DNA of 64,000 bases from Cyclobacteriaceae bacterium (GCA_041746855.1 JBGTGG010000143.1:2155-66154), one strand, 5' to 3'; positions 13,659-64,000 are shown, counted from the first letter of the stretch. Translations and numbers: made by a program. The notes: a model not told the origin generated them from the letters alone.

Positions 13659-13664
13659 GAAAGT

Positions 13665-48809: not shown

Positions 48810-48934
48810 CCTTCAATTATTAATATGAACAAGTTAATCAGCCTGTAGTTTATTAAAAAGTATTGAACTATATAAACGGTAATAAATGTTACAACTTGGT
48901 TATGTAATTTTCTGCTCAAATAAACCTCCTGAAA

Positions 48935-49693
48935 ATGAAACTGTTATTTACTATATTCTCGTGTACCCTCTTTAGTTTTATTTCCTTGGCGCAACGACCT
49001 TTACCAGATCCGGTCGAGACCAAGAAAGGAAAGTTGAACATCCAGCCCATATTGCACGGTACTGTGGTCTTTACCTGGGACAATAAAACTGTGTATGTCG
49101 ACCCTTATGGCGGAGCCGAAGCTTTTAAAGGAATAGCGGCTCCTGATTTGATCCTCATTACTGATATCCATGGTGATCACATGGATTTAAAAACCCTCGC
49201 GGCCATTGAAACCCAGAAAGCAACAATAGTTGCACCGAAGGCAGTTGGGGAAAAACTTCCTGATAATCTAAAAAGTAATTTAGTGGTACTTTCAAATGGC
49301 CAAACCACCACCCAATTTGATATAAAAATCCACGCCATTCCGATGTATAACTTGCCGGAAAGCCCGGATTCACGCCATACCAAGGGGAGAGGTAATGGCT
49401 ATGTGTTGACGATGGGCGGAAAACGTATTTATCTCTCTGGTGACACCAGCGACATTCCGGAGATGCGGAAACTCAAAAATATTGATGTCGCTTTCGTTTG
49501 CATGAACTTACCGTACACAATGGACATCAATCAGGCAGCTAGTGCAGTGTTGGACTTCAAGCCAACCGTTGTTTACCCCTATCACTACCGTGGACAGGGA
49601 GGCTTGAGCGATGTGGAGGCTTTTAAGAAAATGGTCACCGATAAAAACACCAGGATTGAAGTTCGTTTAGCGAATTGGTATCCCCAATACTGA
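48935..49693 (+). CDS. Secreted MBL-fold metallo-hydrolase
   Basis: Signal peptide, then LILITDIHGDHMD (HxHxDH-type motif variant), then YLSGDT. Size and pattern match the UPF0173-like MBL proteins. Confidence 0.7.
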   Translation: MKLLFTIFSCTLFSFISLAQRPLPDPVETKKGKLNIQPILHGTVVFTWDNKTVYVDPYGGAEAFKGIAAPDLILITDIHGDHMDLKTLAAIETQKATIVAPKAVGEKLPDNLKSNLVVLSNGQTTTQFDIKIHAIPMYNLPESPDSRHTKGRGNGYVLTMGGKRIYLSGDTSDIPEMRKLKNIDVAFVCMNLPYTMDINQAASAVLDFKPTVVYPYHYRGQGGLSDVEAFKKMVTDKNTRIEVRLANWYPQY

Positions 49694-49769: not shown

Positions 49770-50645
49770 ATGGATTTAAGTTTGCAGATTGATCAGGTTG
49801 ACCATTCAGATATTACCGTTGAGGAATTTCGTAAAAACTATTTAAATCAAGGGAAACCTTTGTTGATTAAGGGATTTGCCAAAGATTTTCCTGCCGGGGA
49901 ATTATGGACTTTCGATTACTTCAAAGAAAAGATGGGTGATTTTGAAGTTGGTATTTTTGACAACTCAAAGAAAAGTACTTCAACCTATGTGAAGCCGGAT
50001 TTGTACATGAAGATTTCAAAGTTTTTGGACATCATCCAGAAGGACGAGGAGACACCCTATCGGATTTTCTTATTCAACATGTTCAAAGAGTTTCCAGAAC
50101 TGCGAAAAGAGTTTCCCACCCCACCACATGCAAAAGGAATATTGGGTGATTTAGGCCTTGCTTTTTTTGGTGGTAAAAACACCAACGTCCGCGTTCACTT
50201 TGATATCGATTGCTCAAGCGTACTCATGACGCAGTTTATAGGCAGAAAACGTGTGGTACTTATTGGGCCGGAATACGAGACCCTTTTTTATAAATTACCT
50301 TTCTCTGGTTTTTCGATAGTAGATATTGAGAAACCGGATTATGAGAAATTCCCAGGCTTGAAGTATGTGAAAGGATATGACTTTGTGATGGATCCGGGCG
50401 ATGCCCTTTTCATGCCCAGTCGCTATTGGCATTACAACACCTACCTCGAAGGAGGCATGGCTGTTTCCTACAGGGTAATTGCCAATCAACCCGTAAGTGT
50501 CTACAACGGGGTGATGAATACATCGTTTCGGTTGATGTATGACAAAATGATGGGCAAAGTATTGAAAGATAAATGGGTAGATAGGAAAATAGCAAAAGCT
50601 ATCGCAAAAGCTGATCGCGAAATACAAAGTTTAGCAATTAAGTGA
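49770..50645 (+). CDS. JmjC/cupin-8-like protein (putative Fe(II)/2-oxoglutarate-dependent oxygenase)
   Basis: The N-terminus EEFRKNYLNQGKPLLIKGFAKDFPAGELWTFDYFKEKMGD is typical of cupin_8/JmjC proteins. Candidate metal ligands are in VRVHFDID (HxD) and WHYNTYLEG (distal His). Confidence 0.65.
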   Translation: MDLSLQIDQVDHSDITVEEFRKNYLNQGKPLLIKGFAKDFPAGELWTFDYFKEKMGDFEVGIFDNSKKSTSTYVKPDLYMKISKFLDIIQKDEETPYRIFLFNMFKEFPELRKEFPTPPHAKGILGDLGLAFFGGKNTNVRVHFDIDCSSVLMTQFIGRKRVVLIGPEYETLFYKLPFSGFSIVDIEKPDYEKFPGLKYVKGYDFVMDPGDALFMPSRYWHYNTYLEGGMAVSYRVIANQPVSVYNGVMNTSFRLMYDKMMGKVLKDKWVDRKIAKAIAKADREIQSLAIK

Positions 50646-50819
50646 TGTAATTCTGGCTACCGGCAGCAGCTGCTCCCAAATGACCGGATGTGCTGGTGAT
50701 TTTATTGCAATTTCCCATTCCTTGTTTGTAGGGGTATTGGAGTTTTTGAATTCAGAAGTTACAGGTTTTTAGTTATAAGTTTTTAGGTTTGCCAGGAAAC
50801 GATCAACTACCCAAATAAC

Positions 50820-51425
50820 CTAACGTTTAGTGTCTATCACTTTATTTCTTTCAGAATATCTCAACAGAATGGTAAGAGCCATCGTCTTTAGTTCCTCCAA
50901 ATCCATTATTGGAAAATTTGTTTCTTTCGCTTGCTCATCCCAATGCCGCATTTTAATACTTGTTTCAAACAATGCATCATTTTCAAAGTCGGCTGCTTCT
51001 TCGGATGTCATTACACCACCCTGGTATTTCAGTGTTTTTTTACTTGCTTCACTCAGGTTGTTTAGGTAGGCAGCATCTTTTAATGTGAGATACCGCTTCG
51101 CTTGTACATGGTTCTCAATCAATTTGGCCATTCGCTCAGGAAATCCTTTCTCACGGATAAAATCTGCACCAATTTTCTCATGGCTTTTGATTCCGAATCC
51201 ACCCATTTCATTGCTACTATTTTTTTCTTCGCAGAGATGACCAATATCATGGAAGAAAGCAGCAAGAACAACTTCGTTATCAAATCCATCAGCAATAGCC
51301 AACTGCGCGGATTGTGACATGTGCTCCAATTGTGATACGGGTTCTCCGATATAATCCTCATCACCAAATTTTTGATAGAGATCAAAAATTTCTTCCACTT
51401 TTTCTGAAATTGTTTTTTCCATCAT
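50820..51425 (-). CDS. PhnZ-like HD-domain protein (phosphonate-degradation-associated mixed-valent di-iron oxygenase family)
   Basis: The sequence FGDEDYIGEPVSQLEHMSQSAQLAIADGFDNEVVLAAFFHDIGHL matches the Y.GE.VSQLEH..Q.A..A......E.V.AA..HD.GH signature I recall for the phosphonate-operon HD family (PhnZ/TmpB type). Additional His residues lie in SHEKIGADF and ENHVQAKRY. Confidence 0.65.
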   Translation of the reverse strand: MMEKTISEKVEEIFDLYQKFGDEDYIGEPVSQLEHMSQSAQLAIADGFDNEVVLAAFFHDIGHLCEEKNSSNEMGGFGIKSHEKIGADFIREKGFPERMAKLIENHVQAKRYLTLKDAAYLNNLSEASKKTLKYQGGVMTSEEAADFENDALFETSIKMRHWDEQAKETNFPIMDLEELKTMALTILLRYSERNKVIDTKR

Positions 51426-51569
51426 TTTTATTTTTTATGAAGGTATAGAAAATAGAAAGGGATTAGTTTACGGAAATGTTAATTCAGTAGATCAGAAATT
51501 AAAATAGCCATCATAGAAAAAATGTGTATCCTGCTGGCGAGGGATGTACATTGCATAAATTTTATTGTA

Positions 51570-52271
51570 ATGGAAATAGAACTGGTTGTGTTTGATCTGG
51601 CGGGTACCACCGTTAAAGATAATAATGATGTACATCGGATATTGCAATATGCTTTTGCATTAAACAATATCGAGATATCAATCGCAGATGCAAATTCCGT
51701 GATGGGAATCCCAAAACCTGTTGCGATAAACAATTTGTTGAACCTGCGATATCATGGTAATGGGCCGATAACCCAAGCATGGATCGAAGATATCCACCAC
51801 ACCTTTGTAAAAGAGATGATTTCATTTTATGAGCACGATCCGCGTGTTGGTGAGAAAGAAGGTGTAACCGATACCTTTCGTGAACTTAGAAACCATGGGA
51901 TTAAAGTTTTTGTTGATACTGGTTTTGACCGGCCAATTGTGGCTCCGTTACTGGATCGACTTGGGTGGGAGAAAAACAATCTGATTGACGGTAGCGTTAC
52001 CAGTGATGAAGTAAAGCAAGGCAGACCTTATCCTGATTTAGTATTTAAAGCAATGGGAATGGCAGGTGTAACCGATTCAAAAAAAGTTGCCAAGGTAGGG
52101 GACACCGTTTCTGATCTTGAAGAGGGAATAGCTGCCGGTTGTGGATTGGTGATTGGGGTTACTTCCGGTGCGTTTTCGTATGATGAGTTGAACGAGAGTA
52201 AACACACACACTTGATTGAAAATATTTCGGAGGTGTTGGAGATTTTGAAAATTTCTTCCGTTAAACTTTAA
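51570..52271 (+). CDS. Phosphonatase-like HAD hydrolase (PhnX / PhnX-like, phosphonoacetaldehyde-type C-P hydrolase)
   Basis: HAD motif I is the unusual DxAGT form (VVFDLAGTTV). The cap-domain Lys sits in the context MGIPKPVAI. Arg replaces the usual Lys in GRPYPD. Motif IV is VGDTVSDLEEG. These are the distinguishing features of the PhnX clade. I prefer the ATG at 51570. Confidence 0.7.
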   Translation: MEIELVVFDLAGTTVKDNNDVHRILQYAFALNNIEISIADANSVMGIPKPVAINNLLNLRYHGNGPITQAWIEDIHHTFVKEMISFYEHDPRVGEKEGVTDTFRELRNHGIKVFVDTGFDRPIVAPLLDRLGWEKNNLIDGSVTSDEVKQGRPYPDLVFKAMGMAGVTDSKKVAKVGDTVSDLEEGIAAGCGLVIGVTSGAFSYDELNESKHTHLIENISEVLEILKISSVKL

Positions 52272-52319
52272 GTTAGATTACTAAATTGTTACCTTCATGT
52301 TAATTTAAGATTAACATGA

Positions 52320-52910
52320 ATGCGGGCGTTGGTTATCATATTCTTTCTTTTCTGGTCGCTTGCTGCTAAGGCAGACTCAAGCGCAATAAAATGGTACAAG
52401 GGTTCAGTGGTGCTTGCCACGCAGGAAGTTTATGTTGGTGATTTATACATCGAAAATCAATTTGACATAGTTTTAGTAAAGGAGGATTCGAAAGTCAAAG
52501 TACTTCCTGCACATAAAGTACATGCTGTTTACTTCTATGATTCCATCGAAAACATTAACCGCAAGTTTATTTCTGTTCCTGAACAAAGGGAGGCCTATCA
52601 TTCTTATAGGTTGTATGAGATTGTTTTAAAAGGAGAGGTGAATGTGCTTCGTAGGGAAAAAAGTTTTTCTGATAATCAACGTGAAGAATATAATGCTGAT
52701 GGGTTTCTCTATTATATTCACTGGAACGAAAGAATTACCACGCTTAGGAGATTTCGGGCTGATATTTTTCCAAAACTAGCTGATTCAAAACCAGCAATAA
52801 ATGCATATATCCGCGATCAGAAATTGAACAGTAATCTGGAAAGCGATGCCATTCGAATCATTGATTTTTATAATCATCTCGCCAACGATGAGGTTATTGC
52901 ATCGCGATAG
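52320..52910 (+). CDS. Hypothetical secreted protein
   Basis: Signal peptide MRALVIIFFLFWSLAAKA. I recognise no family. The 3' end overlaps the convergent transporter gene by 17 nt. Confidence 0.45.
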   Translation: MRALVIIFFLFWSLAAKADSSAIKWYKGSVVLATQEVYVGDLYIENQFDIVLVKEDSKVKVLPAHKVHAVYFYDSIENINRKFISVPEQREAYHSYRLYEIVLKGEVNVLRREKSFSDNQREEYNADGFLYYIHWNERITTLRRFRADIFPKLADSKPAINAYIRDQKLNSNLESDAIRIIDFYNHLANDEVIASR

Positions 52911-54210
52911 CTGGAACCTCCGGTTTAGACTGATTTTGATATTTAAAATGAAAGTATAGCATTGAACCTAGAATCAATGTGGTTCCAGCGATGGAAATAA
53001 TATACCCTGAGGAAATAAAGACGGATAACCAACTCAGGTTATGATAGCCAAATTCTTTAAAGAGCACAATGCTTACGCTTCCTAAATAACCAAACGAATC
53101 GGCTACGTACATAATGAAACCAACCGTTCCAACATACTGGAAGGATGCAATCAAGCGATCAAAAAATATGCTGTTGAATGGAACATAGGCCATGTAAAGT
53201 CCTAAGCCAATCAGGATCATCCATTGTATTGCGTCAAGGATATGCTGTTCAAAGAGTAAGGTTGCAAATCCGATTAACAACATACCGACACCAATGAGGA
53301 TGTGATTGATCATTAGTGCAAGCTGATTGTTTTTGATCAGCATTAAGCTTCCCATTATAACTAAGACAGCAATCGAAATGGGTATTTCGGTAGTGGTGAA
53401 AATTTCAGGAGAGTTTCCATAGCCGAGTGTGGTCCACACTTCAGCAGAAAAATTGTCGCGGAAGTCGCGGAATATGGTGAGTAGAATGTAGCAGAGAACA
53501 AAAAGGATAATTCCCGGCAAAAAAGTGGTGATGAATTTTTTGCGTTCATTTTTATCCATCGGCATGCGCTTGGTACGAAGTTCCTCATCCTTCAATGAAG
53601 GAGGAGGAACTTTCTCCAGAAGGAACAAAAATACAAGCAGGGGAACAATGAATATACAACATGCGACAAACGGCATCCAGGTTTCGCTCACATTCCAATC
53701 GCGGATAAGATATGCACCCGTTGATCGACAAAGCCCTGATGAGAAAATAAAACTTACTGATAAAGCGGCTCCGAGTACTTCTGTCATCCTTCTTCCCTCC
53801 AAATACGCAAAGATCATTCCCCACACCATGCCAAGTGGCAAGCCATTCGTGAAAAGGAAAATAATATTGTAGGGAGCAGGCACTAGTCCAAACAACAACC
53901 ATGAAATACCCGCAATGGCGATCATCAATAAAATTCCCTGGGCTCTTGATTGTGTTTTCAATTCTGAAATTACTTTGATCCCAATAAATTTAGAGAGACC
54001 GTACCCTAGGATTTGGGCAATCACCAACCAGGATTTATAATCAATCCCCCAAAACGAAAGCCCTTCGAATGTTGTTGCGGCAAAAGTTTTGCGAAATGCA
54101 TACACACAGGTGTATAAGCAGAAAGCTGAAAGCGCAGTAAAAATCGTAAACCAAATAGAATGCCTGGTTCGTAACCAACGTGTTATGAAGTGTTCAGAAA
54201 GTAAGACCAT
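52894..54210 (-). CDS. 12-TM MFS-like inner-membrane transporter (family uncertain; candidate aminophosphonate importer)
   Basis: I count 6+6 hydrophobic helices separated by a charged central loop (EKVPPPSLKDEELRTKRMPMDKNERKKF), which is the MFS-type topology. The 17-nt overlap with the upstream PHP gene indicates an operon. Confidence 0.6.
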   Translation of the reverse strand: MVLLSEHFITRWLRTRHSIWFTIFTALSAFCLYTCVYAFRKTFAATTFEGLSFWGIDYKSWLVIAQILGYGLSKFIGIKVISELKTQSRAQGILLMIAIAGISWLLFGLVPAPYNIIFLFTNGLPLGMVWGMIFAYLEGRRMTEVLGAALSVSFIFSSGLCRSTGAYLIRDWNVSETWMPFVACCIFIVPLLVFLFLLEKVPPPSLKDEELRTKRMPMDKNERKKFITTFLPGIILFVLCYILLTIFRDFRDNFSAEVWTTLGYGNSPEIFTTTEIPISIAVLVIMGSLMLIKNNQLALMINHILIGVGMLLIGFATLLFEQHILDAIQWMILIGLGLYMAYVPFNSIFFDRLIASFQYVGTVGFIMYVADSFGYLGSVSIVLFKEFGYHNLSWLSVFISSGYIISIAGTTLILGSMLYFHFKYQNQSKPEVPAIAMQ

Positions 54211-55051
54211 TGGGAGTGAAGTTGGTTGGTGTCCATTTTCCTTCCTTCAATACAGATAGTTTTCTAAATCCTATTGCATAGAGTAATTCAGCAGTATGTT
54301 CGAAACAATTGATAAGATCATCAGGACGATGTGCATCTGAACTCAACGTGATCGGTATATTTCTTTTATGGATTTCATCCAATATACATGGACTTGGATA
54401 AGGTGTAATGGATTTGTTTTGATAAAGTCCGCGGGTATTTACTTCTACGATAGTACCCGCTTGTTCGATCACATCCAGCGTCCTTCTGAATTCTTCGCGA
54501 TACCAGCCATCCGATTCCTCAAAAAGTTTGTTGTTGATATTTTGGATTTTGATTTTATCAAGATGCCCGACCACATCAGGTCTTGCTATTTCAATCATCT
54601 CCCGGGTAAGCTCCTGATAATGCCTAACAACATCCTGAATATTGTTTCTGAAAATATTTTCGAAGCCATTTAAAAACGAGCTATGCGATCCGTCTATTTC
54701 CCAGGGACTTCCATCTTCATGTGAATTCACAAAATGGATAGACCCGATGGTATAGTCGAGTAGCATTTTAAAATCCTTTGGTGAGATTACACCCGGGATG
54801 TAATCGATTTCCATTCCAGCATATATTTCTATTTCTTGATTGCTGGCTTTCAGGAGATTGATTTCATGAATGTATTCAGCAACATGATTGGCATTCATAC
54901 ACCACGTGCAACTAAATGGCAACGGTGCATGCGATGAGAAACCAATGCTATGCATATTAATATTTAATGCCTGCTCAATATAATCGTGTAAGGAACGCTG
55001 CCCGTCACAATAGCGACTGTGCGTATGAAAGTTTGACCACATGGCGGGCAA
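54194..55051 (-). CDS. PHP-domain phosphoesterase (HisJ/histidinol-phosphatase family)
   Basis: The N-terminus WSNFHTHSRYCDG (HxH metal site), plus GFSSHAP, GSIHF, VGHLD and the C-terminal SSDAH, form the typical PHP metal-ligand series. Confidence 0.8.
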   Translation of the reverse strand: MPAMWSNFHTHSRYCDGQRSLHDYIEQALNINMHSIGFSSHAPLPFSCTWCMNANHVAEYIHEINLLKASNQEIEIYAGMEIDYIPGVISPKDFKMLLDYTIGSIHFVNSHEDGSPWEIDGSHSSFLNGFENIFRNNIQDVVRHYQELTREMIEIARPDVVGHLDKIKIQNINNKLFEESDGWYREEFRRTLDVIEQAGTIVEVNTRGLYQNKSITPYPSPCILDEIHKRNIPITLSSDAHRPDDLINCFEHTAELLYAIGFRKLSVLKEGKWTPTNFTPNGLTF

Positions 55052-55176
55052 TTTCGATTTTTGGTTTTGTAACTAAAACAGCAAACAGTAAGCTTAACAA
55101 AAGGATAACCTGGCCACATTGTTCTGCATTTTCTTTACCTTAATCTTTGAAGTACTTTTTAAAACGAAGAAAAATT

Positions 55177-56304
55177 ATGGAACGCTCAGCAGATATCGCC
55201 ATTGTAGGCGCAGGTATTGTAGGACTTGCACATGCTTACATGGCGCTAAAGAAAGGGTATAAAGTGGTGTTGTTTGAGCGTGATCAATTTGCTGTTGGTG
55301 CTTCCATTAGAAACTTTGGATTACTGTGGCCAATCGGTCAAGAACCCGAAATCAATTTGGACCGAGCACTACGGAGTAGGAAACATTGGATGGACATTGC
55401 CGCTCAAGCCGGATTTTGGCTCAATCAAAATGGATCTCTTCATGTTGTGTACCACGATGATGAATGGGAAGTATTACAGGAGTTCATGGAATTATACCGC
55501 GGAACTGCATTTGAATGTAAACTTTTAAATGCGGACGAAGTACTTGTTAAATCCCCACATGTAAAACGTGAAGGATTAAAAGGAGGACTTTGGAGCGCAA
55601 CCGAAGGAACCGTTTATTCGCGTGAAGCAGTTCGTAGAATTCCGCAATGGTTGGAAGGGAAGTTCGGATTGATCTTAAAGTTCGGGCATGTTGTTACTTC
55701 TATTTCATTACCTACCGTTACCACAGCCAGGGAAACCTGGAAGGTTGATAAAGTATTTGTTTGCAGTGGTGCAGATTTCGAAACCTTGTACCCGGAAGTT
55801 TATGATCAGCAACCCGTTTCAAAATGCAAATTACAAATGATAAAAGCGGTTTCGGATCGGAAAATAGAGCTTGGCCCTTCACTCTGTGCCGGGCTTACGC
55901 TTCGTCATTATGCAGCCTTTACAAAATGTCCTTCGCTGCGAAAAGTCGATGCGCGCTATGATTTGGAATCATCCGATTATAAAAAGCATGGTGTACATGT
56001 GCTGTTGGCGCAAAACGCGCAAGGTGAATTCATTATTGGTGATTCGCATCACTATAGTAAAACGGTTGAGCCTTTTGATTTCGAGGAAGTGAATTCAATT
56101 ATTCTGGATTACCTACAGTCTTTTGTTGATTTAGGTAAGTTGACCATTACCGAACGATGGAATGGTGTTTATCCTAAAATACAAGGGAACACAAACATGG
56201 TGGTTGAACCCGAGCCGGGTGTTACCATTGTAAATGGACTAGGTGGAGCGGGTATGACATTAAGCTTCGGACTTGCTGAAGAGCATATCAATGCTTTGGG
56301 ATAG
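55177..56304 (+). CDS. FAD-dependent oxidoreductase (DAO family; amine/aminophosphonate oxidase-like)
   Basis: The dinucleotide fold is ADIAIVGAGIVGLAHAYMALKKGYKVVLFER, followed by ASIRNFGLLWPIGQ, and the C-terminus is GLGGAGMTLSFGLAEE. The context next to a PhnX-like hydrolase matches what I recall of the phosphonatase-associated FAD oxidoreductase clade. I prefer the ATG at 55177. Confidence 0.7.
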   Translation: MERSADIAIVGAGIVGLAHAYMALKKGYKVVLFERDQFAVGASIRNFGLLWPIGQEPEINLDRALRSRKHWMDIAAQAGFWLNQNGSLHVVYHDDEWEVLQEFMELYRGTAFECKLLNADEVLVKSPHVKREGLKGGLWSATEGTVYSREAVRRIPQWLEGKFGLILKFGHVVTSISLPTVTTARETWKVDKVFVCSGADFETLYPEVYDQQPVSKCKLQMIKAVSDRKIELGPSLCAGLTLRHYAAFTKCPSLRKVDARYDLESSDYKKHGVHVLLAQNAQGEFIIGDSHHYSKTVEPFDFEEVNSIILDYLQSFVDLGKLTITERWNGVYPKIQGNTNMVVEPEPGVTIVNGLGGAGMTLSFGLAEEHINALG

Positions 56305-56429
56305 TCAACGTCCCTAATATAACATACTGTCAGTGAGTTTATCGAAACCTTTTTGGTTGACTCCGAAACTGCCTTCTATCCTGCTAGCTATCGGGAGGGG
56401 CTGATCTATAAAATTGATTTTTTTGTCTT

Positions 56430-57005
56430 CTAGTGCGGCACCAAAAAATAGATAACCAACATTACCACATTTTCTTTTGACCGATTGATGGGCAAATGCG
56501 GAACTGAAGCATCGAAATAAATTGTGTCACCTTCTTCCAACAGTATTTCCTCATTGTTGATCTGGTATTCACAACTTCCTGAAAGAATATGTTTAAACTC
56601 AAACCCATCTGTCGTGGTGGGTCTTCCCTTTGTGTCGGGCGCGAGTGTCAGGAGTGAAACTTCAATACTACAGGCGGAGATGTTTTGCGCAAGGATATGT
56701 TGATAGTGGTAGCCCGGTCTGCCTTCTTTTTCAACAACCGTGTAATCTTTCTTTTTTATGTGGACGAAGTTCTTTCCGTTTACCAACACCACATCCTGAA
56801 AAAATTCTTTTAGTGATATTTCAAGCGATTGAATGATGGTTACAAAAACGGGTAATGAGGGAATGGTTCGTGAGTTTTCAATCTTGGATAGCAACCCTTT
56901 GCTAACGTGTGCACGTGTGGCCAACTCTTGAATTGTCATATTTTTTTCAAGACGCGTGGTTTGAATTTTTTGTGCAATGCGGGATACAATTTCATTCCTT
57001 ACCAT
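56430..57005 (-). CDS. XRE-family HTH transcriptional regulator with C-terminal cupin sensor domain
   Basis: The HTH_3 region is MTIQELATRAHVSKGLLSKIENSRTIPSLPVFVTIIQSL. The cupin beta-barrel has GFEFKHILSGSCEY and EGDTIYFDASVPH. The start is either the ATG at 57005 or the TTG at 57011. Confidence 0.8.
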   Translation of the reverse strand: MVRNEIVSRIAQKIQTTRLEKNMTIQELATRAHVSKGLLSKIENSRTIPSLPVFVTIIQSLEISLKEFFQDVVLVNGKNFVHIKKKDYTVVEKEGRPGYHYQHILAQNISACSIEVSLLTLAPDTKGRPTTTDGFEFKHILSGSCEYQINNEEILLEEGDTIYFDASVPHLPINRSKENVVMLVIYFLVPH

Positions 57006-57013
57006 TTTCAAAT

Positions 57014-57032
57014 TGTTTACTCAGAGTAAACA
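57014..57032. promoter_or_regulatory. Perfect 7-5-7 inverted repeat TGTTTAC-TCAGA-GTAAACA immediately upstream of the XRE-cupin regulator start (candidate operator)
   Basis: Read directly from the sequence. It lies 9-27 nt upstream of the regulator ATG, in the 300-bp divergent region shared with susC-like. Confidence 0.35.
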
Positions 57033-57311
57033 TAGAAAAATATCTTTCAATTTTTGGGTCGGCAAAATGTAGGATGATTGATGTTACGGCAATGTTATTC
57101 TCAATTGCTTAGAAAACTTGATTCTTTCAAAGTTTCGTATTTGTCAAATGAAGATTTGGTAATCGAAGTTTCATTTTGCAGCACAAAGTTTAATGCAGTG
57201 ATAATATTTCACTAAACGCGATATCAAATCCTTTGTCAACCTTTGGTACGTGATTAAAAATTTAAAACACAAAATTTTCAATCCTAAAACAAAACCAACA
57301 ACCCCAATTCT

Positions 57312-60300
57312 ATGAACAAAAATTTCCAAAAACTCTTTTACACTTTTTACCGGAGCATGGTAAAGGTGTGTATTGCGCTTACGGTGCTGCTACTCTATGC
57401 ATCCGTAAGTTATGCTCAAACGCGTGTCACCGGAAGAGTAATATCCGGTGAGGATGGTGCTGCTATACCGGGAGCAAACATTCTTGTGAAAGGAACTGCA
57501 CTAGGAACAATCACCGATGCAGAAGGAAATTTTTCGGTGGAGGTGAGCAGCTCCGATGCAGTGCTAACAATTTCTTTTGTAGGATATAAAACCCAAGATG
57601 TTGCATTGGCTGGACAAACTACTGTGGATGTTACGCTGGAGTCTGATGCCAAATACCTTTCGGAGGTGGTAGTTACAGCGCTCGGTATTCCAAAAGAGAA
57701 AAAGGCTCTGGGTTATGCGGTGCAAAGTATTTCTAGTGAAAGTATTACTACTGCGCGTGAAACCAATGTTGTCAATCAATTGGCTGGTAAAATAGCGGGT
57801 GTAACGGTTGTTGGAAGTAATTCTGGAATTGGCGGTTCTTCACGTGTTTCAATTCGTGGTGAGCGCTCTGTTGATTTAAATAAGAATCAACCACTCTATG
57901 TAATTGATGGTGTACCAATTTCCAATGGTATTACAGGCGGTTCAGGACGTGGAAATTTGGAAGTGGATTTCGGAAACGGGGCAAGCTTTGTTAATTCAGA
58001 TGACATTGAATCAATGACGGTGTTGAAAGGCGCTGCGGCTGCTGCCTTGTACGGTTCACGTGCAGCCAATGGAGTAATCATTATTAAAACCAAGTCAGGA
58101 AAGGGTTCCAAAGGGTTAGGTGTAGAAATTAATTCTAATACAACTTTTGAATCAGTATTACGATTGCCGGAATATCAAAATGTGTATGGACAAGGAAACG
58201 GAAATGGTGGTGATTTTGCGTTTGTTAATGGTGGTGGTGCCGGTTTAACGGACGGTGTTGATGAAAGTTGGGGACCGGCTTTTAATGGTCAACTGTATCC
58301 TCAATTCAATTCACCCCGCACATTAGGTGGTCAATCTATTCCTTTTCGGGGTGGTGATTTAAATGCTCCAGCTGGTAGTGTAATTACCCCTACACCTTGG
58401 CTGAACGATGCGGATGGTGTAGAGAATTTTTTCCAAACAGGAAGGACGTTAACAAATAATGTAGCGCTCGTTGGTGCAAATGAGCAGGGTGACTTTAGAT
58501 TATCTTACACAAGTCTGGACCAAACGGGCACCGTACCCAATACAGATTTAAAGAGAAACACAGTTTCTTTTGGTGGTGGATTTAATCTTTCCCCAAAATT
58601 CTCCGCCCGTGCCTTTGTAAGTTATATCAAGAGCGAAAGTGACAATAGACCTTCCCTCAGTTATGGAACGGAGAATATCATGTATCTATTTAACTGTTGG
58701 TTGCCCCGTTCGGTAAATGTTGCAGATTTAAAAGATTATTGGATGCCTGGTGCAGAAGGTACACGTCAGTTTAACTTTAACTATAACTATCATGATAATC
58801 CTTACTTAACGGTTTATGAAAACACCAATGGCCAATACGTTGACCGTCTAATTGGAAACATTTCATTGAAGTATGATTTTACAAACTGGTTAAGTTTGCA
58901 ATTGCGCACTGCAACAGATTTTGCTAGCGAACGCAGACAATACCGCAGAGCTTTCAGCACCCAGCGTTTCCCGTTTGGTCAATATCGTGAGGCTAAAGTT
59001 GTTACCGAGGAACGTAACTCCGATTTCCTTTTGACATTTAACAAGGATATTGTACCTTCTACATTTACGTTAACAGCATCTGTTGGGGGTAATCAGTTGG
59101 ATCAAAAATCAGAGTACCTTGAAATAAACGCACCACAATTAAACATCCCCGGGATTTTTAATCTAACAAATTTCAGAGCGCCCTTACAATCTGAACAAAC
59201 GGATGTAAGAAAAAGTATTAATAGCTTGTATGGTACAGCTCAAGTAGGGTATAAGAATATTTTATTTTTGGATTTATCAGCGCGAAATGATTGGTCCAGT
59301 GCGCTTACTTTACCACAGGCGTTAAAAGATGCAGGTATAGGCACGCAGGATAATTCATATTTCTACTCTTCTGCCGCAGTAAGTGCTATTATCTCTGATA
59401 TGTTTCAGGGACCTGAATTTCTTTCATTTGCCAAACTTAGAGGAAGTATTTCGCAGGTAGGAAATGATACCGATGCCTTTACGTTTACACAATCCTATAA
59501 TCCAAGTGATCCTTTTGGAAATTCACAAGTATATGGTGAAACAGATCGCCTGGCTAACTTTAGTTTGAAACCAGAGATTAGCACCTCGTATGAAGGTGGT
59601 TTTGATATAAAGTTCTTCCAAAACCGAATTGGGTTAGATGTAACCTACTACCATACGAACACCAAAAATCAGATTCTGAATATTCCATTATCGATAACCA
59701 GTGGATATAATAGTCGGGCTATCAATGCAGGGGAGATCAAAAACTATGGGGTAGAGATTATGCTCAATGTCATTCCAGTAAAATTGGATAATGGTTTCCA
59801 ATGGAACTTGGATGTTAATTTCTCTAGCAATAGAAGCGAAGTTGTTTCTTTATCCGATGGGCTTACCAATTTTGTGATGGCGAGTCGCAGGGTTAGTATA
59901 GAGGCAAGAGTAGGGGAGCGCATGGGCGACATGTATGGAATTGGTTTTGCCCGTGTTCAAAATACGGACTCCGATAAACCTTACTATAGTGCAAATGGTC
60001 AGTTTGTTGGTGAAATGGTTTTTGATTCCCAAGGTCGTCCGATTCGTACATCGGATAGGATAAAGCTTGGCAACTATAACCCGGATTGGATGGCAGGAAT
60101 AAATAACATGTTTACGTATAAAGGATTCAGAATAAGTGCTTTGTTTGACATTCGTCAAGGTGGTGAGGTATACTCTGAGACACAAACTGTTGGTCGTGAA
60201 GGCGGAATAATTATTGAGACACTGGAAGGAAGAGAGAATGGATATTACCCGCAGGCGTCTGTTGCTGGCGACCCACAACTTCTTAATGCTCCTGAAGGAA

Positions 60301-60680
60301 CGTATGTAATTGGCGATGGTGTAGTTTCAAATGGGGATGGTACCTTCAGTGTAAATGAGACACGGGTATTGCCACGGCAATGGCATAGTGCATGGACAGG
60401 TGGACGAAACATTGCAGAAGGAGTAACGTATGATGCCTCTTTTGTAAAGCTACGGGAGATGCAAATTGGGTATACATTTTCTGATAAGGTCTTTACTAAA
60501 ACTCCTTTTCGAAGTGTAAGTATCGCCTTTGTAGGAAGAAACCTTGCCTTGTGGACAGATGTTCCTCACATCGATCCTGAAGTGATGTCATATTCAGGTG
60601 GTACCGCATTACCTGGTATTGAGTATATGTCAATTCCATCCTCTAGAAGTTATGGTTTTAACATCGGACTTAAATTTTAA
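57312..60680 (+). CDS. SusC/RagA-family TonB-dependent outer-membrane transporter
   Basis: Signal peptide. The carboxypeptidase-regulatory-like domain is VTGRVISGEDGAAIPGANILVKGTALGTITDAEGNFSVEV. The TonB-box region is LSEVVVTALGI. Plug motifs are MTVLKGAAAAALYGSRAANGVIIIKTK. The terminus is SYGFNIGLKF. There is no N-terminal STN signalling extension. Confidence 0.92.
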   Translation: MNKNFQKLFYTFYRSMVKVCIALTVLLLYASVSYAQTRVTGRVISGEDGAAIPGANILVKGTALGTITDAEGNFSVEVSSSDAVLTISFVGYKTQDVALAGQTTVDVTLESDAKYLSEVVVTALGIPKEKKALGYAVQSISSESITTARETNVVNQLAGKIAGVTVVGSNSGIGGSSRVSIRGERSVDLNKNQPLYVIDGVPISNGITGGSGRGNLEVDFGNGASFVNSDDIESMTVLKGAAAAALYGSRAANGVIIIKTKSGKGSKGLGVEINSNTTFESVLRLPEYQNVYGQGNGNGGDFAFVNGGGAGLTDGVDESWGPAFNGQLYPQFNSPRTLGGQSIPFRGGDLNAPAGSVITPTPWLNDADGVENFFQTGRTLTNNVALVGANEQGDFRLSYTSLDQTGTVPNTDLKRNTVSFGGGFNLSPKFSARAFVSYIKSESDNRPSLSYGTENIMYLFNCWLPRSVNVADLKDYWMPGAEGTRQFNFNYNYHDNPYLTVYENTNGQYVDRLIGNISLKYDFTNWLSLQLRTATDFASERRQYRRAFSTQRFPFGQYREAKVVTEERNSDFLLTFNKDIVPSTFTLTASVGGNQLDQKSEYLEINAPQLNIPGIFNLTNFRAPLQSEQTDVRKSINSLYGTAQVGYKNILFLDLSARNDWSSALTLPQALKDAGIGTQDNSYFYSSAAVSAIISDMFQGPEFLSFAKLRGSISQVGNDTDAFTFTQSYNPSDPFGNSQVYGETDRLANFSLKPEISTSYEGGFDIKFFQNRIGLDVTYYHTNTKNQILNIPLSITSGYNSRAINAGEIKNYGVEIMLNVIPVKLDNGFQWNLDVNFSSNRSEVVSLSDGLTNFVMASRRVSIEARVGERMGDMYGIGFARVQNTDSDKPYYSANGQFVGEMVFDSQGRPIRTSDRIKLGNYNPDWMAGINNMFTYKGFRISALFDIRQGGEVYSETQTVGREGGIIIETLEGRENGYYPQASVAGDPQLLNAPEGTYVIGDGVVSNGDGTFSVNETRVLPRQWHSAWTGGRNIAEGVTYDASFVKLREMQIGYTFSDKVFTKTPFRSVSIAFVGRNLALWTDVPHIDPEVMSYSGGTALPGIEYMSIPSSRSYGFNIGLKF

Positions 60681-60712
60681 TCCTATACCGCTCAACTTAG
60701 AAAAGAATAACG

Positions 60713-62257
60713 ATGAAAAATATAGTTAACCTAAGAAAAACTTTATTAGTAATGGTGGTGATGCTAAGTGCTACCGCCTGTGATAAGGATTTTGAAGACA
60801 TCAATACCAATATGAATGTGCCAACGTCAGTTCCACCTGACCTCTTGTTATCCGGAGTTATCCGCAACACGCTCAATAACCAAGTAGGAGAAGCGTGGGG
60901 AATTGGGAATATAGTTGTTCAACATACTGCCAAAATCCAATTTGTGAATGAAGACCGATACCAATGGAATGAACAAAATGGTATTTGGAATACGGTTTAT
61001 GGCAATATGAGAAACCTACAAAACATTATTGATATTGCAGAGAAAGCTACCCCTGTTCAAAATAACTACCTGGGCGTAGCTTTGGTGATGAAATCATGGA
61101 TGTTTTCGTTGGCCACCGATGCGTATGGTGATATACCTTACACTGAAGCTGCGAAGGGAAAAACCAGTGGTATTTATCTTACCACCTATGATACGCAGGA
61201 ATCTATCTATGATGGGATTTTAGCGGATCTGGAAACGGCAAACGAAATTCTCGGAACAAGTGCTGAAGCTCTGTCGGGAGACCTTTTATATGGTGGAGGT
61301 GCAAGTGCGATTCTCCAGTGGAAAAAACTTGCAAACTCGCTTCGCTTACGCTACCTGATGCGAATTTCGAACAAACGGGATGTCAGCGCTGCGATGCAGG
61401 AGATTATCGACAATCCAACTGACAACCCAATTTTTGAAGACAATGAAGATAACGCGCATTTAATTTATCAGGCAGCAGCACCAAACCAATGGCCTTTGTA
61501 TACAACCCGTGTTGGTTCGTTTGATGAATTCCGGTTGAGCAAAACATTGGGCGATGTTTTGGAATCGTATAGTGATCCGAGATTGGCGGTGTTTGCACGC
61601 CCTACCCAAAATTCGGTGACTGCCGGTACCCCAGTAATTGAGGGAATACCAAATGGGTTAGAAGATACACAGGCACTTAGTTATAATGGCGGCCCCCAAA
61701 ATATTTCCAGAGTAGGCTATACTTTTGCCTGTTTAGTTTGTAATGACAATGGGCAGGCAGTACCAGTTCCCAATGCTGCAAGAAGCTTATTGATGACTTT
61801 TTCTGAACTTCAATTTATTTTGGCCGAAGCAAGGGAAAGAAACTTGATAACAACCGGAACAGCCGAAGCATATTATATGGAAGGGATCAATGCCAACTTC
61901 GATTACTATCGGAGTATTGTACCTGAAAGCTATGGAATAGATCTTACTACGCCTGCTAGTTATTTTACGCAGCCTGCAGTTTCCTACACAGGCACTACAT
62001 CAGAAAAGTTGACCAAAATTGCAACACAAAAATGGATCGCTTTATTCTTCAATGGTCTGGAGGCTTGGTTTGACTGGAGAAGATCCGGGCTACCGGAATT
62101 GACCCCCGGTGCAAGTAATTTAAATGATGACTTGATCCCGGTTAGGTTCATCTACCCACTTGCTGAGCAATCACTAAATGCACCCAATCGTGAAGTCGCT
62201 GTGGCCAGACAGGGTGTTGATAATATTAACACACCCGTTTGGTGGGATAAACCGTAA
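60713..62257 (+). CDS. SusD/RagB-family nutrient-binding outer-membrane lipoprotein
   Basis: The lipobox is MLSATAC. It starts 32 nt after SusC. TPR-like helical blocks (LRYLMRIS, QKWIALFFNGLEAWFDWRRSGLPEL) are typical of SusD-like_2 proteins. Confidence 0.88.
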   Translation: MKNIVNLRKTLLVMVVMLSATACDKDFEDINTNMNVPTSVPPDLLLSGVIRNTLNNQVGEAWGIGNIVVQHTAKIQFVNEDRYQWNEQNGIWNTVYGNMRNLQNIIDIAEKATPVQNNYLGVALVMKSWMFSLATDAYGDIPYTEAAKGKTSGIYLTTYDTQESIYDGILADLETANEILGTSAEALSGDLLYGGGASAILQWKKLANSLRLRYLMRISNKRDVSAAMQEIIDNPTDNPIFEDNEDNAHLIYQAAAPNQWPLYTTRVGSFDEFRLSKTLGDVLESYSDPRLAVFARPTQNSVTAGTPVIEGIPNGLEDTQALSYNGGPQNISRVGYTFACLVCNDNGQAVPVPNAARSLLMTFSELQFILAEARERNLITTGTAEAYYMEGINANFDYYRSIVPESYGIDLTTPASYFTQPAVSYTGTTSEKLTKIATQKWIALFFNGLEAWFDWRRSGLPELTPGASNLNDDLIPVRFIYPLAEQSLNAPNREVAVARQGVDNINTPVWWDKP

Positions 62258-62341
62258 GGTTTACATGCAAAATCCGGGGCCCTAAAGGCCTCGGATTTTT
62301 TTGATCTGTACAATTTAAAAAGAGTTAACTAAAATTTTATC

Positions 62342-63442
62342 ATGAGATTCATATCTATCATCACCCTTTTATTGCTAATCACTTTTTGTCAGGTTGTAGC
62401 ACAACAAAAAAACAAAACAGAAAATGTTATCCTAATAACACTCGATGGATTTCGCTGGCAGGAACTTTTTAACGGAGCTGATTCATCATTCATGAAGCAA
62501 CAAATCAATCTTAAAGATCCAAAACTAAAAGAGAAATACTGGAGGGATGATTTAAATGAAAGGAGGAAAGCTTTACTGCCATTTATGTGGGGAACCATTG
62601 CAACACATGGTCAAATTTATGGTAATAGGAGTCTCGGCAACAATGTAAATGTGACCAACAATCAATTGTTCTCGTATCCAGGCTATAATGAAATCCTAAC
62701 AGGAAGTGCCGATAATGAAAGGATTAATTCGAATGATAAAACCTACAACCCCAACACCAATGTACTGGAGTTTATAAACAAACAACCCCGCTATAAGGGG
62801 AAGGTAGCAGCGTTTTCTTCCTGGGATGTTTTTCCTTACATTATAAACGACAAACGAAGTGGCATTTATGTTAGTACCGGTGTCGCTGAAGTAAAAGGAA
62901 CAAACCTAAGTGAAAGTGAAAAGATGATGAATAAATTAATTGTTAACCTTCCAAATCCATTGGGTGATATTCGTTTGGATGCCTTTACATTTTATTACGG
63001 AATGGAGTATATGAAGAAGAATAAGCCTAAAGTAATGTATTTTGCCTTAGATGAGACAGACGATTTTGCACATGGTGGTGAATATGCTGCGTATTTGAAT
63101 TCGGCAAATTATACCGACAAGTTTTTATCGGAGCTATGGGCTTACCTTCAATCTGACCCTCAATACAAAAATAAGACAACACTCATAATCACCAGTGACC
63201 ATGGAAGAGGAGACAATGCGGAAGACTGGAAGCATCATGGTCAAAAAATTCCGATTGCCGATCAGATATGGTTTGCTTTTCTTGGCCCTGATACACCGGC
63301 CCTTGGCGAAGTAAAAACATCCGGACAACTATATCAGAATCAGGTGGCCAAAACACTTGCAGCGTTACTAGGGTTGGAATTTAAAACTGAAAAAGAGATA
63401 GGCAAATCAATTGATGCCGTTATTGGAAGAAAAGGATTGTAA
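62342..63442 (+). CDS. Secreted alkaline-phosphatase/NPP-superfamily phosphoesterase
   Basis: Signal peptide. Metal and nucleophile blocks are VILITLDGFRWQE, FSYPGYNEILTG, LDETDDFAHGG and IITSDHGRG, which parallels the NPP/AP core (DG.R, T/S nucleophile, D..H, DHG). Confidence 0.7.
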   Translation: MRFISIITLLLLITFCQVVAQQKNKTENVILITLDGFRWQELFNGADSSFMKQQINLKDPKLKEKYWRDDLNERRKALLPFMWGTIATHGQIYGNRSLGNNVNVTNNQLFSYPGYNEILTGSADNERINSNDKTYNPNTNVLEFINKQPRYKGKVAAFSSWDVFPYIINDKRSGIYVSTGVAEVKGTNLSESEKMMNKLIVNLPNPLGDIRLDAFTFYYGMEYMKKNKPKVMYFALDETDDFAHGGEYAAYLNSANYTDKFLSELWAYLQSDPQYKNKTTLIITSDHGRGDNAEDWKHHGQKIPIADQIWFAFLGPDTPALGEVKTSGQLYQNQVAKTLAALLGLEFKTEKEIGKSIDAVIGRKGL

Positions 63443-63502
63443 CAATACTTTGCTCCAATAAAGAGTGTGTCAGGACTAAAGTCATTTGTTTAACAATATT
63501 GT

Positions 63503-64000
63503 ATGTTAAAGGGAAGTAGAAAAATCTTTTTTTTTCTTGGAGTCTTGCTACTCTCATCATGTACAAAGAGTAATGAGTTGCCAGTAACCTACCGGTCGTA
63601 TGATGAATTTAGTTCGGCTATATTGCCAGACTCAATAAAACTCTTGGTGGAACAGGCTAGAAACCTGCAACCTATTCAGCTTGAAAAATTAATGCATTTA
63701 GATTCTTCCTGGAACTTTCAAATTGGAGATTCTTTGGAAAGTTTACATGAACCTTGTAAAATCATTACCGGTGAAAAGGTAGATCTACCACATCGCATAG
63801 AACTTCCGGATAGAGCGATCTGGTATGAGAGACAAATCTATTTTTCACAAAAGGGGGTATTGACAATATCCGCAGATGATGGCGCCCAACTTTATGTTAA
63901 TGGACAACGTATTGTCAGGTTGTATGACACTTTTTTTCCAATTGACACGGTTGGAATGATGAATGTTACTATTCGCGTTTTGAACAACGCAATGGCTGGT
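63503..64000 (+). CDS. Lipoprotein with a galactose-binding-like (GH2-N-like) beta-sandwich segment; partial, continues past the window end
   Basis: This ORF is not in the supplied track. My translation from the ATG at 63503 gives MLKGSRKIFFFLGVLLLSSCTKS (lipobox), then ...SWNFQIGD...VDLPHRIE...AIWYERQIYF...LTISADDGAQLYVNGQRI, open to position 64000. The W.F / VPH / WYR.F / L.F...D....Y.NG pattern resembles sugar-binding jelly-roll domains. Confidence 0.5.
   Translation, partial: MLKGSRKIFFFLGVLLLSSCTKSNELPVTYRSYDEFSSAILPDSIKLLVEQARNLQPIQLEKLMHLDSSWNFQIGDSLESLHEPCKIITGEKVDLPHRIELPDRAIWYERQIYFSQKGVLTISADDGAQLYVNGQRIVRLYDTFFPIDTVGMMNVTIRVLNNAMAG

Follow-up and report, generated by a model that had tools for sequence, protein, structure and literature searches.

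Phosphate-starvation-induced PusCD complexes were defined in Flavobacterium johnsoniae by Lidbury et al. (2021, PMC8115612), and Connolly et al. (2026, bioRxiv 10.64898/2026.09.03.749221) found that PusCD1 and PusCD2 import phosphoinositol compounds, terming them the first characterised organophosphorus TonB-dependent transporter-lipoprotein complexes. Both papers noted that some pusCD-like pairs lie beside aminophosphonate-degrading genes, and Connolly et al. pointed out that such pairs must bind their ligands in another way. Here we analyse a locus of this kind near one end of a 64,000-nucleotide stretch of DNA from a Cyclobacteriaceae bacterium, a soil or water member of the Bacteroidota (GCA_041746855.1 JBGTGG010000143.1:2155-66154; the whole stretch is called the window below), in which a SusC/SusD pair, secreted phosphoesterases, a DUF5690 membrane protein and an XRE-cupin regulator are grouped with HD, HAD and FAD enzymes of carbon-phosphorus (C-P) bond catabolism. 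We consider it probable that the locus is an aminophosphonate-directed PUS-type scavenging system for phosphorus and possibly nitrogen, and we infer that its SusC/SusD pair is dedicated to aminophosphonate-bearing organophosphorus compounds, not to glycans.

The locus shares with PusCD1/PusCD2 a SusCD-like pair accompanied by phosphoesterases and an inner-membrane transporter, a lack of carbohydrate-active enzymes (profile scans found none within the locus), and the proposed capture of organophosphorus in a phylum without the usual ATP-binding cassette (ABC) importers. The surface lipoproteins, however, belong to different SusD subfamilies, PusD1 and PusD2 being pf07980+pf14322 proteins and the SusD of the locus a PF12771/PF12741 protein, which is not their orthologue. 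Pus1/2 take phosphatidylinositol, glycerophosphoinositol (GroPI) and inositol monophosphate (IP1) through tryptophan stacking on the inositol ring, a mechanism inapplicable to aminophosphonates. Moreover, the locus adds C-P-cleaving enzymes, DUF5690 and the XRE-cupin regulator.

The catabolic genes have their own precedents. PbfD2 converts 2-aminoethylphosphonate (AEP) and N-methyl-AEP to phosphonoacetaldehyde and stands in for the transaminase PhnW in 'phnX + phnZ' clusters, the PbfD reaction releasing ammonia or methylamine (Zangelmi et al. 2023, PMC10590968). The locus resembles these PbfD2-PhnX(-PhnZ) clusters in having a TIGR03364 oxidase, a PhnX-type hydrolase and a phnZ homologue with no PhnW; the cluster type is listed for many bacteria, the Bacteroidota Dyadobacter and Pedobacter appearing with other pbfD types (phnX+pbfA, phnYA) (PMC10590968). 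As far as the accessible text of that paper goes, its clusters contain unnamed putative phosphonate transporter genes, whereas the locus has SusCD, secreted phosphoesterases, DUF5690 and a PHP enzyme; the terms SusC, SusD and TonB are absent from the accessible supplement text. A permease with a major facilitator superfamily (MFS) fold beside AEP catabolic genes also recalls the AepP/GlpT-type organophosphate:phosphate antiporters (Murphy et al. 2021, PMC8316502), but AepP is 28% identical to GlpT, and DUF5690 forms a separate family with no detectable MFS_1 or GlpT sequence match. With the PhnY*/PhnZ pathway the locus has in common an HD diiron oxygenase whose iron ligands and residues binding the amino group are identical; it differs in that the cluster has no PhnY*-type hydroxylase, the neighbouring Cupin_8 protein being JMJD5/FIH-like.

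The author of an earlier note on this DNA, made from the sequence, had been aware of no characterised SusCD-dependent phosphonate system. Our literature searches likewise found no characterised aminophosphonate SusCD system, but the genomic association had already been noted (PMC8115612; bioRxiv 10.64898/2026.09.03.749221) and the pbfD-phnX-phnZ cluster type had been catalogued (PMC10590968). The association itself would not surprise a specialist. The present analysis adds that the conserved inner-membrane partner is DUF5690, that the synteny is broad and plastic, that the SusD clade is unusually conserved and that the promoters share a motif, and the locus makes phosphonate uptake by Bacteroidota directly testable.

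Predicted phosphonate enzymes in a conserved neighbourhood

Open reading frames (ORFs) were mapped over 46-64 kb of the window, and families were assigned by Pfam and NCBIfam profile scans (Table 1). All of the genes described in the earlier note were present, with coordinates exact or at most 50 nt off. Its suggestion that profile searches be used to place the HD, HAD and FAD proteins gave a largely affirmative answer, since the HD and FAD proteins scored over the cutoffs of phosphonate-specific models, while the HAD protein lay nearest to the PhnX-like model and 16 bits short of its cutoff.

The HD protein, taken from the start for a PhnZ-like oxygenase, falls in the phosphonate clade: besides exceeding the curated cutoff, it matched the PhnZ structure 4mlm with an E value of 1e-49 (TmpB, 3e-30), and in a phmmer alignment to 4mlm all nine catalytic and substrate residues of PhnZ (Y24, E27, H34, H58, D59, H62, H80, H104 and D161) were identical. 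The TmpB and PhnZ1 equivalog models gave scores far under their cutoffs. According to the literature on the PhnZ structure, H34, H58, D59, H80, H104 and D161 are the six iron ligands, H62 is catalytic and Y24/E27 gate the substrate, E27 being in contact with its 2-amino group. Because E27 is kept, an aminophosphonate substrate is expected, and the predicted reaction is that of (R)-1-hydroxy-2-aminoethylphosphonate with O2 to give glycine and phosphate.

The HAD protein had been described as PhnX-like, and that wording proved to be the right one. Its best matches among Protein Data Bank (PDB) entries were to Bacillus cereus PhnX, the phosphonoacetaldehyde hydrolase; it keeps the DxAGT motif (FDLAGTT) and GRPYP, and the lysine of its MGIPK aligned to the Schiff-base lysine K53 of that enzyme. 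However, C22 and H56 of PhnX are not conserved, and both curated cutoffs were missed (true-PhnX model TIGR01422, 108.7 versus 220; TIGR03351, Table 1), for which reasons we call it PhnX-like and not PhnX. Orthologues in two related loci, L085 and L131, showed the same sub-cutoff behaviour on both models. We predict from these alignments that the protein is a phosphonoacetaldehyde-type hydrolase. The FAD protein had been proposed as an oxidase able to supply the aldehyde substrate. Consistent with this, it is a TIGR03364/PbfD member over the cutoff, and comparison with the sequences of PMC10590968 Fig. S2 gave 40% identity over 367 residues (E 2e-88) to the characterised PbfD2 of Mariniblastus fucicola and 29% identity to PbfD1; the predicted reaction is the conversion of AEP or N-methyl-AEP to phosphonoacetaldehyde.

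We then compared 165 related loci, 83 centred on DUF5690 and 82 on SusD. A DUF5690 scan with one genome per species yielded 80 loci, all from Cytophagales, 45 of them with full 10-kb flanks; a scan for SusD orthologues yielded 80 metagenome loci, 32 with full flanks. The closest DUF5690 homologues came from Cyclobacteriaceae, Ohtaekwangia and Chryseolinea, and the order HD, HAD, 190-amino-acid (aa) protein, DUF5690, PHP, FAD, XRE-cupin, SusC, SusD, phosphoesterase is common to a Cyclobacteriaceae metagenome-assembled genome and Ohtaekwangia koreensis. Among the full-flank DUF5690 loci, 33 of 45 carried the HD/HAD/FAD genes, and 32 of these 33 had SusC and SusD within 10 kb; all six core genes were present in 25 of the 45 genomes. 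Starting from the SusD orthologues, C-P genes were found in 21 of 32 full-flank loci and all six core genes in 16. By a rough estimate, a SusCD pair lies within 10 kb of a random point about 10-25% of the time, and since the observed 32/33 stands far above this baseline, the grouping of SusCD with C-P genes is not a matter of chance.

The neighbourhood occurs in at least five distinct gene orders, contiguous same-strand arrays included. In Sediminibacterium (Chitinophagales) the genes stand as XRE-SusC-SusD-HD-HAD-DUF5690-FAD, contiguous on one strand and with 45-55% protein identity, and further orders are SusC-SusD-x-APsf-HD-HAD-DUF5690-FAD (APsf, the alkaline-phosphatase-superfamily enzyme), HD-HAD-DUF5690-FAD-SusC-SusD and SusC-SusD-DUF5690-FAD-HD-HAD. 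The enzymes of the rearranged loci match the same three NCBIfam models, and part of the Cytophagales uses a second, divergent PbfD subclade. Beside the regulator, other lineages carry non-orthologous SusCD pairs (SusC ~33% and ~55% identical). At the same chromosomal position we observed at least three SusCD clades (SusC ~80%, 55% and 33%) and two divergent TIGR03364 subclades on opposite strands (L001-L012 versus L014-L030 and others); such lineage-specific clades suggest repeated in-situ replacement. Because the neighbourhood survives both rearrangement and SusCD replacement, it bears the signature of functional coupling. The earlier note had regarded the linkage as only adjacency and had asked whether it recurs. 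It does, in more than one gene order and not only in Cytophagales but also in Chitinophagales (at least one genome, Sediminibacterium), and the co-occurrence in both scans together with a shared promoter motif makes it more than adjacency.

Predicted transport and ester cleavage, and a shared promoter motif

The SusC protein consists of CarbopepD_reg_2, Plug and beta-barrel regions and carries the SusC signature TIGR04057; no match to an STN domain was found in it. With a TIGR04056 score over the cutoff, and with the PF12771 lipoprotein gene starting 33 nt past it, susC forms with susD the pair that had been recognised as divergent from the XRE-cupin gene. The SusD ortholog clade is unusually conserved, at 62-80% identity across Cyclobacteriaceae, Dyadobacter, Spirosoma, Sediminibacterium and Flavihumibacter, and the homologues named Dyadobacter, Spirosoma, Fibrisoma, Sediminibacterium and Flavihumibacter are ~66% identical. 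As had been supposed, the only uptake genes are the SusCD pair and the MFS-like permease, no ABC transporter being present inside the cluster.

Between susD and the esterase genes that follow it lies a strong terminator-like hairpin. The first esterase gene encodes a secreted alkaline-phosphatase (AP)-superfamily protein with weak Pfam matches to Phosphodiest, Sulfatase and Metalloenzyme. Its AlphaFold2 model (pLDDT 73.5) has the core alpha/beta fold and matched many members of the superfamily with a Foldseek probability of 1.0. Its large, tightly conserved clade keeps D35, S111-x-P113, D240/D241/H244 and D286/H287 invariant, and likewise the metal-ligand motifs DG-R, DxxDDxxH and DHG. We predict a periplasmic phosph(on)oester hydrolase. 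The last gene is cut by the window end, and a 9-kb public contig (L166), identical at 100% to window positions 62153-64000 (the last 1848 nt), completes it, the product being a lipoprotein of 582 aa that ends in a Metallophos (calcineurin-like) domain (PF00149, E 2.6e-17); the genes 3' of it on that contig are unrelated. Thus, the proposal of a secreted AP/NPP enzyme and a lipoprotein after SusCD stood as regards the secreted AP-superfamily enzyme and the lipobox, but no subfamily such as NPP could be assigned, and the lipoprotein turned out to be a Metallophos phosphoesterase. In O. koreensis, Metallophos enzymes take the AP-superfamily place after SusD. The esterases vary beside a core that stays constant, which suggests processing of the same headgroups in different ester linkages.

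Loci with single-strand arrays also carry a 424-442-aa protein with only a marginal metallo-beta-lactamase (MBL) match, consistently paired with the AP-superfamily enzyme. Its gene lies between susD and the AP gene in L128, L131, L132, L135, L139, L140, L144, L148 and L151 and also occurs in L085, L109 and L115; Sediminibacterium is the only named carrier among these single-strand-array loci.

The 196-aa secreted protein had no Pfam or NCBIfam match, and the 3' end of its gene overlaps the convergent DUF5690 3' end by 17 nt. Fast-evolving homologues (26-42% identity) occupy the same position in 39 of the 83 DUF5690-centred loci, in Cytophagales, as against only 4 of the 82 SusD-centred loci, none of which is of the single-strand operon type. 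The protein is an accessory of the Cytophagales form of the locus.

DUF5690 is the sole inner-membrane transporter conserved in the cluster. The protein has at least ten strongly hydrophobic segments, and an AlphaFold2 model built with 20 homologues (pLDDT 80.8) showed a 12-helix MFS fold, for which Foldseek returned SLC37A4/G6PT1 and SLC37A2 as best matches and E. coli GlpT at rank 17 (TMq 0.61-0.65). SLC37A4 and SLC37A2 are glucose-6-phosphate:phosphate exchangers. At the sequence level, no match to MFS_1 was obtained at E <= 5, and the DUF5690 profile matched no PDB chain at E <= 1. The protein is therefore MFS-like, as proposed, in its predicted fold but not by sequence membership of MFS_1 or of GlpT-like families. 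The model puts the invariant arginines R40 and R248/R251 at the termini of helices 1 (TM1) and 7 (TM7), an arrangement that may correspond to the phosphate-site arginines R45/R269 of GlpT. From fold and context, DUF5690 is plausibly an organophosph(on)ate permease and an aminophosph(on)ate importer. More than 6,700 homologues are present in public data, and the sole mention of the family in the literature that we searched was unrelated.

The AP-superfamily gene and DUF5690 also occur as a stand-alone divergent pair, in L079 (8824-11281, Cyclobacteriaceae SSA6 chromosome) and in L041, L069, L075, L080 and L081, with no SusCD or C-P enzymes within 10 kb. The link between these two genes may be more basic than the phosphonate module.

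The PHP gene overlaps the start of DUF5690 by 17 nt, in agreement with the overlap already reported, and its product matched the HisJ equivalog NF005996 with 113.6 (cutoff 133) and the histidinol phosphatase 2yxo in the PDB with E 2e-17. It occurs in 62 of the 83 DUF5690-centred loci versus 5 of the 82 SusD-centred ones. These scores indicate that it is probably a HisJ-family member and is unlikely to be histidinol phosphatase itself. A periplasmic location, as first proposed, is not supported: its gene is translationally coupled to that of the permease and encodes no signal peptide, and we therefore place the enzyme in the cytoplasm. Signal peptides or lipoboxes were found only on SusD, the AP-superfamily enzyme, the Metallophos lipoprotein and the 196-aa protein; the HD, HAD, FAD and PHP proteins have no signal peptide.

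Having the divergent HD|HAD and XRE|SusC intergenic regions at hand, we noted that they have TTACGGnAATGTTA in common. The exact 14-mer TTACGGNAATGTTA was rejected as a conserved operator, as it had 8 matches, with at most one mismatch, in 2.6 Mb of loci. Dyad enumeration found GTTA-N7-GTTA and its relatives upstream of susC in 41 of 106 sequences versus 1 of 400 background windows. When the 250 nt upstream of each gene were taken, the motif in the form KTTA-N7-GTTA was present for the XRE-cupin gene in 50/59 cases, for susC in 55/106 and for the FAD gene in 33/77, compared with 0/59 for the operon-internal AP-superfamily gene and 5/111 for DUF5690. It often consists of three 11-bp-spaced units, and in the same loci its density was 1.88/kb in cluster-flanking intergenic DNA versus 0.22/kb in other intergenic and 0.07/kb in coding DNA. 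The 64-kb window holds seven sites, which is the number expected by chance, and four of them lie in those gaps of the locus that carry promoters, of which there are four. On this evidence a common regulon seems to include susCD and the C-P genes.

The regulator has the HTH_3 plus Cupin_2 build that had been reported, a PuuR-like architecture with a weak PuuR match, and its gene stands beside SusC in 43 of the 83 DUF5690-centred and 19 of the 82 SusD-centred loci. The motif occurs upstream of susC in 38/52 loci with an adjacent XRE-cupin gene versus 16/47 without one (p = 1e-4). Since motif presence tracks the adjacent gene, the XRE-cupin protein is the likeliest binder and probably recognises the direct repeats, although repeats spaced by 11 bp would also suit a PhoB-type protein. 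A sigma-70 promoter scan gave hits at chance level, the sigma-70 model being uninformative for Bacteroidota, and an Rfam scan detected no riboswitch or leader RNA in the whole window.

Coordinates, borders and neighbouring genes

For HAD, FAD and XRE, the start codons given in the earlier note agree with the orthologues more closely than the longest ORFs do, and they are used in Table 1.

Table 1. Features of the locus, in positions of the window.
Feature	Position	Strand	Evidence
PhnZ-like HD-domain diiron oxygenase	50820..51425	-	TIGR03276 220.6 bits vs cutoff 214.6
KTTA-N7-GTTA motif, HD|HAD divergent promoter region	51467..51481	+	
PhnX-like HAD hydrolase	51570..52271 (longest ORF from 51522)	+	best model TIGR03351, 202.8 vs 218.9
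KTTA-N7-GTTA motif, 5' of 196-aa gene	52288..52302	+	
Secreted 196-aa protein, no known family	52320..52910	+	signal peptide
DUF5690 polytopic inner-membrane permease (predicted)	52894..54210	-	PF18943 559 bits
Cytoplasmic HisJ-family PHP phosphoesterase (probable)	54194..55051	-	TIGR01856 145.7 vs 90.2
KTTA-N7-GTTA motif, PHP|FAD divergent promoter region	55095..55109	-	
PbfD-type FAD amine oxidase	55177..56304 (longest ORF from 55147)	+	TIGR03364 437.9 vs 285.1
XRE helix-turn-helix (HTH) + cupin_2 regulator, divergent from susC	56430..57005	-	Pfam HTH_3 + Cupin_2
KTTA-N7-GTTA motif, XRE|SusC divergent promoter region	57083..57097	+	
SusC-type TonB-dependent outer-membrane transporter	57312..60680	+	TIGR04056 650 vs 368
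SusD-like_2 surface lipoprotein, transporter lid	60713..62257	+	PF12771 E 2e-97, PF12741, lipobox Cys
Terminator-like GC-rich hairpin + T-run	62269..62299	+	13-bp stem, 7 GC pairs
Secreted alkaline-phosphatase-superfamily metalloenzyme	62342..63442	+	signal peptide, weak Pfam matches
Metallophos lipoprotein N-terminus, cut by window end	63503..64000	+	lipobox LLSSC

The locus had been thought to start at 49770. The JmjC/Cupin_8 gene at 49770-50645, however, has a counterpart in none of the 165 related loci and lies outside the cluster. We also rejected this gene as a PhnY*-like hydroxylase acting with PhnZ, as its product resembles the protein hydroxylases JMJD5/FIH. Just upstream, a secreted MBL-fold hydrolase (Lactamase_B_2; 48888-49693, + strand) was likewise not found in the related loci; a fifth KTTA-N7-GTTA site, at 48888-48902, lies 33 nt upstream of this secreted MBL gene, and the MBL and Cupin_8 genes may have been recruited into the regulon in this genome. 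Directly upstream of the MBL gene follows a DUF4301 protein of 496 aa (729 bits; 47319-48809, - strand). Farther away, the window encodes three cargo proteins of type IX secretion, very large at 2235, 1745 and 1317 aa (602-7309, 12336-18902 and 38120-42073, all on the - strand), with sorting domains of the Por_Secre_tail or CHU_C type. The one of 1745 aa contains 15 PKD-like repeats, and its gene adjoins a PorP/SprF gene.

Among the related loci, L131 (4500-6376, 18441-20236) and L163 have, upstream of the SusC-to-FAD array, genes for a PlcP-like Metallophos_2 protein and a glycosyltransferase, like the lipid-remodelling pair of phosphate starvation, and downstream a PhoB-like response regulator (TIGR02154 228 bits, cutoff 296) and a PhoR/PnpS-like kinase.

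Competing explanations and meaning of the locus

Gene identities, predicted compartments, neighbourhood and motif are the observations from which we infer every substrate and direction of transport in the following scheme. SusD at the cell surface would take a small aminophosph(on)ate, the candidates being AEP, N-methyl-AEP, 1-hydroxy-AEP and glycerol or ceramide headgroup esters from phosphonolipids, and SusC would import it with TonB energy. The surface or periplasmic Metallophos lipoprotein and the secreted AP-superfamily enzyme, placed there on the strength of their signal peptides, could cut the esters and free the aminophosphonate, which DUF5690 may then move into the cytoplasm. By homology to characterised enzymes, the PbfD-type oxidase would convert AEP or N-methyl-AEP there to phosphonoacetaldehyde, and the PhnX-like hydrolase would split this into acetaldehyde and phosphate; in a separate branch, the PhnZ-like oxygenase would turn (R)-1-hydroxy-AEP into glycine and phosphate. 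More speculatively, the HisJ-like PHP enzyme might remove phosphate from aminoalkyl phosphate esters imported alongside, phosphoethanolamine for example. The genes would be controlled by the XRE-cupin protein acting on the shared 11-bp-spaced direct repeats observed at the promoters. The earlier note had envisaged phosphonate-esterified macromolecules as ligands; since the ligands of PusCD1, which has been characterised, are small organophosphates (bioRxiv 10.64898/2026.09.03.749221), small headgroups and free aminophosphonates appear at least as likely. Going one step further, we give nearly even odds to the reading that this SusCD clade is a dedicated TonB-dependent importer of aminophosphonates or their lipid-headgroup esters and that DUF5690 is an unrecognised family of inner-membrane aminophosph(on)ate permeases.

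Several observations weigh against the aminophosphonate scheme. The proteins of the locus are tied to phosphonates by computation, and the compared loci are related by descent and phylogenetically non-independent, so that the counts overstate the number of independent events. About one third of the full-flank SusD-ortholog loci have no nearby C-P genes; Dyadobacter sp. 676 (L084) has none, and L086, L087 and L091 have only SusCD and the AP-superfamily enzyme. Sulfatases, LtaS, NPP5, phosphonate monoester hydrolases and MCR-1 were all matched by the model of that enzyme to much the same degree (TM ~0.5), which did not single out a substrate class. In L079, L041 and L034, DUF5690 is accompanied by just the AP-superfamily enzyme or just the PHP enzyme and by no C-P enzymes, and its substrate may therefore be broader than phosphonates. 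To these points we add the missed cutoffs and absent C22 and H56 of the HAD protein. Finally, no PhnY*-type 2-oxoglutarate hydroxylase or PhyH-type gene that could partner PhnZ was found in the conserved cluster, and the PhnZ-like enzyme must therefore use pre-formed 1-hydroxy-AEP.

Some of these observations would be accommodated if the SusCD pair and the secreted phosphoesterases were a generic scavenger of phosphate esters such as phospholipid headgroups and nucleotides, comparable to Pus1/Pus2 and merely a co-regulated neighbour of the C-P genes in a phosphorus-stress island, phosphonates entering through porins. The SusCD orthologues without C-P genes, sometimes accompanied only by the AP-superfamily enzyme, would be natural on this account, and the AP-superfamily, Metallophos and PHP proteins do belong to phosphoesterase and not to C-P-cleaving families. 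Furthermore, the PlcP-like, glycosyltransferase and PhoB/PhoR-like genes flanking the operon in L131 and L163 suggest a Pho island, and AEP (125 Da) is, as a matter of general knowledge, small enough to diffuse through porins. We nevertheless judge this explanation, the main alternative, unlikely: in many loci the C-P genes and DUF5690 directly follow susD, share its strand and are only shortly spaced, forming an apparent operon, the neighbourhood has outlasted at least five rearrangements and a swap to non-orthologous SusCD, and co-occurrence in 32/33 loci far exceeds what a loose island would lead one to expect.

A second alternative concerns only regulation and purpose, and is thus compatible with the proposed transport and catabolism: the system could serve mainly nitrogen or amine catabolism, induced by its substrate through the PuuR-like XRE-cupin protein independently of phosphate, as in marine AEP catabolism. 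Phosphate-insensitive, substrate-induced use of AEP is documented in marine bacteria (PMC8316502), and the PbfD reaction does liberate ammonia or methylamine (PMC10590968). The regulator has the HTH and cupin architecture of the amine-sensing repressor PuuR, and the motif tracks its gene; on the other hand, 34% of the loci without an adjacent XRE-cupin gene still have the motif upstream of susC, the 11-bp-spaced repeats are also compatible with PhoB-type sites, and three proteins of the locus are phosphoesterases, which would be useless for gaining nitrogen. We hold a mainly nitrogen-directed system to be quite improbable. Least convincing of all, and already disfavoured, is the idea that the adjacency is inherited synteny devoid of functional meaning, for while most loci come from related Cytophagales, in which ancestry alone could keep gene order, and SusCD pairs abound in such genomes, the association persists across different orders, strands and SusCD clades, reaches the Chitinophagales genus Sediminibacterium at 45-55% protein identity and comes with a common cis motif.

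In soils and waters, phosphonates make up a large organic-phosphorus pool, and Bacteroidota are major recyclers of organic matter; to our knowledge, however, most of them have no known phosphonate ABC importer. If the SusCD clade is such a dedicated importer, it would be the first outer-membrane phosphonate transporter, and together with DUF5690 it would explain how Bacteroidota without PhnCDE- or AepXVW-type ABC systems are supplied with phosphonates. Should the aminophosphonate scheme hold, the ligand range of SusCD complexes would widen from glycans and inositol phosphates to aminophosphonates. DUF5690, a large family, would gain a function, while the AP-superfamily clade, the Metallophos lipoprotein and the HisJ-like PHP enzyme would be new accessory enzymes that could process phosphonolipid headgroups. 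Because cultured carriers exist, among them Ohtaekwangia koreensis DSM 25262 (L006), whose complete locus has another SusCD clade, and Chryseolinea sp. H1M3-3 (L071), the model is directly testable, and the SusD clade together with DUF5690 and the PbfD, PhnX-like and PhnZ enzymes would provide a set of metagenome markers for phosphonate use by Bacteroidota.

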